NCBI RefSeq assembly: GCF_057098645.1
Contig: NZ_CM169472.1
Reading direction: 5' to 3' (one strand)
DNA length: 64,000 nt
A model generated the notes under the pieces. That model saw only the letters and a list, made by a program, of their open reading frames with translations, was not told the DNA's origin and did not search any database. Of this stretch, positions 50,462 to 51,982 are shown in pieces. Every line of letters starts with the position of its first letter. Position 1 is the stretch's first letter. A program made the position numbers and the translations under genes.

Positions 50462-50572
50462 AAGCTAACATCAATGAAACCCGCGCCACAAGCCAGCCAG
50501 CTGTAGATTTCTACGTTTTGAACCGCCCCGGGAATCCTGGAGACTAAACTTCCTGAGAAAGAGGTAAACAGG

Positions 50573-50899
50573 ATGACTAAAAATACTCGTTTTTCCCCTG
50601 AAGTCCGTCAACGGGCAGTCCGTATGGTTCTGGAAAGTCAGGGCGAATATGACTCACAATGGGCGACAATTTGTTCCATTGCTCCAAAGATTGGCTGTAC
50701 GCCGGAGACTCTGCGTGTCTGGGTTCGCCAGCATGAGCGGGATACCGGGGGCGGTGATGGAGGGCTCACCACCGCTGAACGTCAGCGTCTGAAAGAGCTG
50801 GAGCGTGAAAATCGTGAACTGCGCCGCAGTAACGATATCCTTCGCCAGGCTTCCGCTTATTTTGCGAAGGCGGAGTTCGACCGCCTCTGGAAAAAATGA
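50573..50899 (+). CDS. IS629-like transposase OrfA (HTH)
   Basis: 108 aa [19 protein letters not shown]... Confidence 0.9.
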
Positions 50900-51786
50900 T
50901 GCCACTGCTGGATAAGCTGCGTGAGCAGTACGGGGTCGGACCGCTATGCAGCGAACTGCATATTGCCCCGTCAACGTATTACCACTGTCAGCAACAGCGA
51001 CATCATCCGGATAAACGCAGTGCCCGTGCGCAGCGCGATGACTGGCTGAAGAAAGAGATACAGCGCGTATACGATGAAAATCACAAGGTATACGGTGTGC
51101 GTAAAGTCTGGCGTCAGTTGTTACGGGAAGGTATCAGAGTGGCCAGATGCACTGTGGCACGTCTCATGGCGGTTATGGGACTTGCCGGTGTTCTCCGGGG
51201 TAAAAAGGTCCGTACGACCATCAGCCGGAAAGCCGTTGCCGCAGGCGACCGCGTAAACCGTCAGTTCGTGGCAGAACGACCTGACCAGCTGTGGGTGGCT
51301 GATTTTACTTACGTCAGCACATGGCAGGGCTTCGTCTATGTGGCGTTCATCATTGATGTGTTTGCCGGATACATTGTGGGGTGGCGGGTCTCATCGTCCA
51401 TGGAGACGACATTCGTGCTGGATGCACTGGAGCAGGCGTTATGGGCCCGTCGACCGTCCGGCACGGTCCATCACAGTGATAAAGGTTCTCAGTATGTATC
51501 GCTGGCCTACACACAGCGGCTTAAGGAAGCCGGATTACTGGCATCAACAGGAAGTACAGGCGACTCGTATGACAACGCGATGGCGGAGAGCATCAATGGT
51601 CTTTACAAAGCGGAGGTAATACACCGTAAGAGCTGGAAAAACCGTGCAGAAGTGGAACTGGCCACACTCACGTGGGTGGACTGGTATAACAATCGACGAT
51701 TGCTGGAAAGGCTGGGCCATACTCCTCCGGCAGAAGCAGAAAAAGCTTATTATGCTTCCATCGGAAACGATGATCTGGCAGCCTGA
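50896..51786 (+). CDS. IS629-like transposase OrfB (DDE catalytic domain), -1 frame relative to OrfA
   Basis: 296 aa; overlaps OrfA at an A-rich run (ggaaaaaatg). Confidence 0.9.
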
Positions 51787-51982
51787 GTTCACAGATAAAA
51801 CACTCTCCAGGAAATCCGGGGCGGTTCATTTTGTTGAGTCCATGCCCCCTTTATAAGTAATCCCCCCGGCAAAAATGCCGCGACGGGATTTTACCGAACG
51901 CAGGAAAGCCACTGGAATTCTCCCGTAAGGGATTGTTATATTATAACAGTTCATCGTACTCATTCTGAACAGGAGACTACCA

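Follow-up and report, generated by a model that had tools for sequence, protein, structure and literature searches.

A strain-private IS629 insertion between ycgL and pliG in an O145:H28-like Escherichia coli

IS629 generates target duplications of 3-4 bp and has no sequence-specific target (PMC3271280). Duplications of 3-4 bp are also known for the IS1203-type IS629, whose excision is aided by the IS-excision enhancer protein. Rump et al. distinguished three IS629 subtypes that are 4-5% divergent, one of them IS1203-like and one Shigella-like. The element is the most abundant IS in O145:H28 (PMC3893438), where our sequence search found it in 19-40 places per chromosome, and K-12 has been reported to be without it. 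Small structural variation in the O145:H28-like lineage stems mainly from IS629.

We analyzed a stretch of 64,000 nucleotides from RefSeq assembly GCF_057098645.1, contig NZ_CM169472.1 (hereafter the window). Positions 50519-51828 (1310 bp) are a full-length IS629, the sole copy within the window, whose ends read TGAACCGCCCCGGG...CCGGGGCGGTTCA. The initial annotation, made from the letters alone, had described a complete 1310-bp IS3-family element here, and its coordinates, its intact orfA and orfB and its terminal inverted repeats were all confirmed. Truncation or missing terminal repeats had been named as signs that would speak against this description; the element is full length, with repeats at both ends. 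Its parts are as follows.

50519-50543, plus strand: left inverted repeat (IRL), beginning 5'-TG, from the repeat search
50573-50899, plus strand: orfA, 108 aa, helix-turn-helix protein; ORF uninterrupted; Pfam HTH_Tnp_1, E = 6.1e-13
50854-50970, plus strand: ALIL pseudoknot, stimulator of -1 frameshifting; Rfam RF01497, full length
50891-50896, plus strand: A6 slippery run in the orfA/orfB overlap CUC UGG AAA AAA UGA, from the sequence and the reading frames
50896-51786, plus strand: orfB, 296 aa, DDE catalytic domain; -1 frame relative to orfA, uninterrupted; Pfam rve, E = 4.8e-28
51804-51828, plus strand: right inverted repeat (IRR), finishing CA-3', from the repeat search; carries a private T at 51815

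The termini are TGAACC...GGTTCA, that is, 5'-TG...CA-3', and the inverted repeats (25 nt, 88% complementary) lie exactly at the element ends. OrfB scores 315.7 bits against the NCBIfam IS3 transposase model NF033516, for which the cut-off is 160, and its catalytic triad is D136, D195 and E231, with spacings of 58 and 35 residues, a DD(35)E arrangement. Slippage by -1 at the A6 run would yield a 404-aa OrfAB fusion, and sister IS629 copies carry a "programmed frameshift" in their PGAP annotation. The RF01497 match of the ALIL pseudoknot scores 120.2 bits (E = 5.8e-32; gathering score, 50). The copy thus shows the length (the range applied for the IS3 family was about 1.2-1.55 kb), the TG...CA repeats, the overlapping ORFs in frames 0 and -1, the DDE and helix-turn-helix domains and the 3-bp duplication that define the family. 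It has all the sequence features needed for activity and is apparently functional.

Copies in O145:H28 strains (for instance RM9872 and RM13514) share 1309 of its 1310 bases (99.9%). The single mismatch is at 51815, 14 bases inward from the outer end of IRR, where the window has T and the O145:H28 copies have C; a Shigella sonnei copy also has C at the equivalent position. We regard this base as private because neither of the two genome collections searched contains a 100%-identical IS629 copy. Either a genuine mutation or a sequencing error could account for the T, and a change at this place in IRR could impair further movement of the copy.

The element is flanked by TTT on both sides, and the flanks read ...CTACGTTT before the IS and TTTTGTTGAG... 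after it.

50516-50518, no strand: left copy of the target-site duplication, TTT, from empty-site reconstruction
51829-51831, no strand: right copy of the target-site duplication, TTT, from empty-site reconstruction

Removal of the IS and one TTT gave an 800-bp joined sequence that matches the uninterrupted ycgL-pliG site of many O145:H28 genomes with 100% identity. Because the rejoined empty site is identical to that of relatives, the flanking ttt noted in the initial annotation is a true 3-bp duplication. The comparison with empty sites proposed there shows the ycgL-pliG site to be uninterrupted in 5405 out of 5426 complete E. coli genomes, where "uninterrupted" means that at least 80% of the 800-bp query is covered in one place. 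With 600-bp probes across each IS629-chromosome junction, neither junction was found in any of the 5426 genomes, and therefore the insertion is strain-private among complete genomes. The insertion is real, strain-private and recent.

The surrounding chromosome identifies the host lineage. The 22.5 kb to the left of the IS are 100.0% identical to strain Z1323HEC0422 and 99.9% identical to O145:H28 outbreak strains. Window positions 1-49663 (49.6 kb) are collinear with Z1323HEC0422 at 99.96% identity, with 18 mismatches and one 1-nt gap. By this sequence comparison the host backbone is that of an O145:H28-like E. coli and not of K-12, in agreement with the earlier view that the strain is no K-12 derivative; the literature report of K-12 without IS629 points the same way. 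A Shigella origin, suspected when the junctions were found in no E. coli genome, was rejected on the same backbone identity (100.0-99.9% to O145:H28-like E. coli).

We consider it probable that the locus records a recent strain-private transposition, by which a Shigella-type IS629 entered the 208 bp between ycgL and pliG in an O145:H28-like E. coli, with ycgLM expression lowered and pliG essentially unchanged; the transposition pathway, the activity of the copy and the effects on expression are what we infer. Following the IS3-family paradigm, the OrfAB transposase would arise when translation shifts by -1 at the A6 run, aided by the ALIL pseudoknot. OrfAB would then copy IS629 out as a circle and paste it in, duplicating 3 bp (here TTT). 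The IS itself is known and only its site had not been recorded before; the event is ordinary, and it involves neither a new element nor a new mechanism.

The two genes that border the spacer are affected differently. On the right, pliG lies 154 nt from the IS629 end, the distance given in the initial annotation, and the transposase genes are directed towards it.

51983-52384, plus strand: pliG, inhibitor of g-type lysozyme, intact; ORF, PGAP and K-12 annotation
51913-51942, plus strand: pliG core promoter TGGAAT-18-TATATT (extended -10), intact; scan score 10.9

The distance of 154 nt is measured to the pliG ATG at 51983. In K-12, the dominant pliG start is 1226729(-), a sigma-70 start with 509 reads that lies 34 nt upstream of the pliG ATG (PMC3923258 supplement). 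It maps to window position 51949, matching TGGAAT-18-TATATT, so the IS629 end falls at -121 and the core promoter begins 85 bp past it. pliG therefore keeps its core promoter together with the positions where activators usually bind, and we expect its expression to be essentially unchanged.

On the left, the distance to ycgL depends on the start codon.

50135-50428, minus strand: ycgL, conserved 97-aa form; Pfam YcgL, E = 3.5e-34; PGAP CDS of 294 bp

The K-12 annotation stretches ycgL to the ATG at 50461, giving 108 aa, the form solved as PDB 2h7a. All 80 orthologues examined from other species start at MFCVIY, and the N-terminal extension is interrupted by a stop codon in Escherichia sp. MOD1 and shows no conservation elsewhere. 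Together with the 294-bp PGAP annotation, these comparisons point to the downstream ATG at 50428 as the conserved start, giving 97 aa. IS629 lies 57 nt from the ATG at 50461 and 90 nt from the one at 50428. The figure of 58 bp in the initial annotation refers to the K-12-style start, and the conserved start is farther away. In K-12, ycgM is annotated as an oxaloacetate tautomerase.

The K-12 evidence for transcription of ycgL places its upstream starts beyond the insertion. Two promoters on the far side of IS629 are relevant.

51854-51883, minus strand: upstream ycgL promoter region TCGCGG-18-TACTTA, mapped from the K-12 -72 end; cut off by the IS
51940-51969, minus strand: distal predicted ycgLM sigma-70 promoter TTCAGA-18-TATAAT, the sole match of a stringent scan; cut off by the IS

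A 5'-RACE end for ycgL was reported at -72, with the -35 box CACGTTGCG (Mendoza-Vargas 2009 supplement, PMC2760140), by a 5'-RACE that does not discriminate 5'-triphosphate ends, so that primary and processed ends are not separated. Counted from the annotated ycgL ATG, this end corresponds to window position 51846, 18 nt from IRR. Because it maps beyond IRR, IS629 lies inside the ycgL leader as mapped in K-12, about 14 nt downstream of the 5'-RACE end. The -35 hexamer of this promoter is TCGCGG in the host lineage versus TTGCGG in K-12; judged from this sequence difference, the -72 promoter may already have been weak in the host lineage before the insertion, which would bring the insertion closer to neutral. 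The distal promoter has 10/12 matches plus a TG in the stringent scan, and a genomic SELEX study with RpoD holoenzyme attributed the same hexamers to ycgLM (PMC3946193). High-throughput K-12 sets give ycgL a single start of 7 reads, 1226557, which is inside pliG. This start precedes the small antisense gene ymgN by 34 nt and probably serves it. All upstream ycgL 5' ends mapped or predicted in K-12 (the -72 end, TTCAGA-18-TATAAT and 1226557) fall beyond IS629.

Closer to the gene, a promoter-like block is left on the ycgL side of the element.

50462-50491, minus strand: promoter-like block TTGTGG-18-TAGCTT with TG (extended -10), lenient scan score 6.5; conserved

This block is intact and 27 bp from IS629. 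Transcription from it is predicted to start near 50455, and relative to that start the first IS base is at about -64. Among the 80 ycgL loci compared, ycgL stands back-to-back with minC in most genera, with a different and well conserved upstream region. The E. coli-type upstream sequence recurs in Escherichia sp. MOD1, Pseudocitrobacter, Citrobacter sp. R56, Yokenella and Trabulsiella guamensis. Across the six lineages with this sequence the upstream neighbor differs in each, and conservation starts sharply at cTTGTGG, continues through TAGC(T/G)T and then decays until the Shine-Dalgarno region, with TTG, TG and TA...T invariant. Such a pattern is that of an extended -10 sigma-70 promoter, and we treat the block as a putative promoter. 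An RNA element was considered as another explanation of the conservation and rejected: the consensus fold is only -4.7 kcal/mol, covariation is negligible and Rfam has no match there. No transcription start is recorded at the block in the K-12 start-site sets or the K-12 5'-RACE data. The idea that ycgL has lost its only promoter was softened by the conserved proximal block (80 loci) and partly restored by the -72 5'-RACE end.

Under the reading that we favor, a recent transposition that lowers ycgLM expression, ycgL-ycgM would be separated from the upstream starts by 1.3 kb of antisense IS. Transcripts from the severed ycgL promoters would run antisense into IS629, on whose minus strand a stringent scan found no terminator-like sites. 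Untranslated antisense RNA is a usual target of Rho-dependent termination. We expect ycgLM expression to be lowered and not abolished, resting on the proximal block, and we see an even chance that a real reduction has occurred. The initial annotation had both genes cut off from a shared regulatory region. This stands in part for ycgL, which is parted from its upstream starts yet keeps the proximal block, and it fails for pliG, which keeps both its 509-read start and the promoter at 51913-51942.

An insertion that is neutral for regulation is possible, if rather unlikely. The IS would then sit between self-sufficient divergent promoters, with ycgL driven by the proximal promoter and pliG by its own, and nothing measurable would have changed. 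The conservation of the proximal block in six lineages with unrelated upstream DNA agrees with such an arrangement, as do the positions of the IS, about -64 on the ycgL side and -121 on the pliG side, which are outside the core promoters and the usual UP-element zone. The weaker -35 hexamer of the -72 promoter in the host lineage fits as well, and persisting insertions tend to be harmless. However, the sole directed mapping of a ycgL 5' end in K-12 puts that end at -72, beyond the insertion point, and the K-12 sets record no start at the block on which ycgL would then depend.

A second element lies close by.

52811-54141, plus strand: IS2, second private insertion, 1331 bp, canonical ends, duplication ATCAT (5 bp); splits ycgJ after nucleotide 50

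The downstream (3') part of YcgJ matches Pfam YcgJ. An assignment of this neighboring element to the IS66 family was rejected on its canonical IS2 ends, its 1331-bp length and its 5-bp duplication. The two elements are 983 bp apart, flank pliG and are both strain-private; a 15-kb stretch differs from O145 strain RM9872 by these two insertions alone. The ycgL-pliG-ycgJ segment has a GC content of 43-44% versus 49.6% for the whole window, and most other enterobacteria have no pliG-ycgJ between minC and ycgL. The default reading of the pair is that of two unrelated neutral insertions. We think it improbable that the bracketing of pliG, in a low-GC Escherichia-specific pliG-ycgJ cassette, reflects either selection for a changed locus, in which ycgJ is inactivated and ycgLM detached from its upstream promoters, or a regional IS hot spot.

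Other genomes also carry IS2 near this place. An unrelated duck isolate has a divergent IS2 inserted 2 bp from this one and oriented alike, with the duplication ACATC, and six further genomes have IS2 within about 45-310 bp of the ycgJ IS2 site. Because of these genomes, the ycgJ region is suggested to be an IS2 hot spot.

Activation of the neighboring genes is very improbable. It would take the form of transposase mRNA reading through into pliG, or of antisense sites at the left end of the IS reading through IRL into ycgL. The transposase genes do face pliG, with no terminator-like site between orfB and pliG in the scan, and a lenient scan gave weak minus-strand promoter-like matches at 50568-50541 (7.4) and 50611-50583 (9.0); activation of neighboring genes is known from other IS3-family members. 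Yet the stringent scan found no promoter in IS629 on either strand, the IRL promoter of the IS3 family is weak by design, and the pliG promoter is already strong (509 reads). A review of IS-mediated gene activation names IS629 for excision only, and a literature search found no published outward promoter of IS629. The outward-reading promoter activity that the initial annotation put forward as a possibility finds weak consensus matches in these scans and no published support in this search.

An assembly artefact, in which the assembler wrongly placed a repeated IS629, is hardly credible: IS629 is highly repeated in the lineage and the insertion is in no other genome, but both junctions are base-perfect with a 3-bp target duplication, which a misjoin would not make, and the copy bears its own private base.

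As a recent transposition, the insertion provides a clean strain-specific marker of the IS-printing kind, of modest practical value. It can also serve as a natural test for the true start of ycgL-ycgM transcription.

We compared this copy with the described elements closest to it. With IS911, IS3 and IS3411, the paradigms of the IS3 family, it has in common TG...CA ends, a transposase of the DDE type, orfA and orfB in frames 0 and -1, and a slippery site rich in A with an RNA structure downstream of it. Copy-out-paste-in transposition and frameshifting would apply to it by family membership, carried over from IS911, IS3 and IS3411.

Within IS629, the described isoform IS1203/IS1203v ("IS629 subtype I" of E. 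coli O157:H7 and O111) shares its length and organization with the window copy. At the sequence level, pO157 copies, which PGAP labels "IS1203 family", are 96.0% identical to the window copy, which is thus not of the O157 type; this identity fits the 4-5% divergence between the published IS629 subtypes.

The Shigella sonnei element is much closer. Our reference was the copy on the Ss046 plasmid pSS_046, a different copy from the type sequence X51586, and it is 99.47% identical to the window copy over 1310 bp, clearly over the 95% DNA identity applied at isoform level, with the same length, ends, gene layout and frameshift region. The two differ by 7 substitutions and no gaps; 2 of the substitutions change an amino acid, 4 are silent and one is the IRR base at 51815. 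This identity, together with the NCBIfam score of OrfB, bears out the initial description of the element as IS629-like, and its sequence places the window copy in the Shigella type.

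Besides IS629, the complete 1310-bp element between ycgL and pliG, the window holds a second strain-private insertion, an IS2 that breaks ycgJ after nucleotide 50. It is flanked by a 5-bp duplication (ATCAT) and lies just 983 bp from IS629; pliG is bracketed between both elements. The features of this insertion are as follows.

52811-54141 (52806-54146 with the flanking duplications): IS2, canonical, 1331 bp
52487-52810 and 54142-54191, minus strand: the two fragments of ycgJ

In an unrelated duck isolate, strain a7 (NZ_CP122496.1, locus L008), ycgJ also carries an IS2. Comparison of positions 1698-3260 of this locus with window 52700-54260 showed that the a7 copy is divergent, has the identical orientation and is inserted 2 bp off the window site, with a different duplication (ACATC). 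Because IS2 is found nearby both in strain a7 and in 6 further genomes (within about 45-310 bp), the 5' end of ycgJ appears to be a recurrent target region for this element.

The IS629 copy itself differs at one base of its right inverted repeat: window position 51815 is T, compared with C in the O145:H28 and S. sonnei copies. With this T the two termini match perfectly over 13 bp instead of 14. No 100%-identical IS629 copy was found among the 5426 complete E. coli genomes or in the plasmid collection. The T could be a real mutation or else a sequencing error.

Between the two elements, pliG contains an antisense small gene that is annotated in K-12.

52028-52087, minus strand: ymgN, 19 aa, within pliG

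The weak start that K-12 datasets record for "ycgLM" is located 34 nt upstream of ymgN and is probably that gene's own.

Elsewhere in the window, position 30536 is T versus C in the closest genome, Z1323HEC0422. The change creates an in-frame stop that splits a TonB-dependent receptor gene, a member of a non-K-12 iron-uptake cluster, into two ORFs (29249-30538 and 30539-31240). For the region at window about 35800-38023, the same closest genome has cvrA annotated without its C-terminus and succeeded by hypothetical genes, among them a 478-aa ORF (window 36587-38023). The missing C-terminus and the genes that follow suggest an inserted segment at the cvrA 3' end.

The K-12 annotation gives ycgL 108 aa, the form also present in PDB 2h7a, and adds 11 codons in front of the conserved start that 80 of 80 orthologues share.

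50428-50461, minus strand: extra N-terminal stretch of K-12 ycgL

Because a stop codon interrupts this extension in Escherichia sp. MOD1, the real YcgL protein is probably the 97-aa form. YcgL (50135-50428) has a run of four prolines (residues QLPPPPEDL). The protein reportedly features in a study, PMC4176338, of polyproline stalling rescued by elongation factor P.

In most enterobacteria ycgL and minC lie back-to-back; in E. coli a pliG-ycgJ cassette separates them. Window about 54590-54660 was compared with positions 1350-1500 of L010-L088, the ycgL loci recovered from other species: in E. coli minC is still adjoined by the ancestral promoter and leader of ycgL, with a remnant, AGAGTAAAAGTCTATTCTGTGAT, that is similar to the true ycgL start region.
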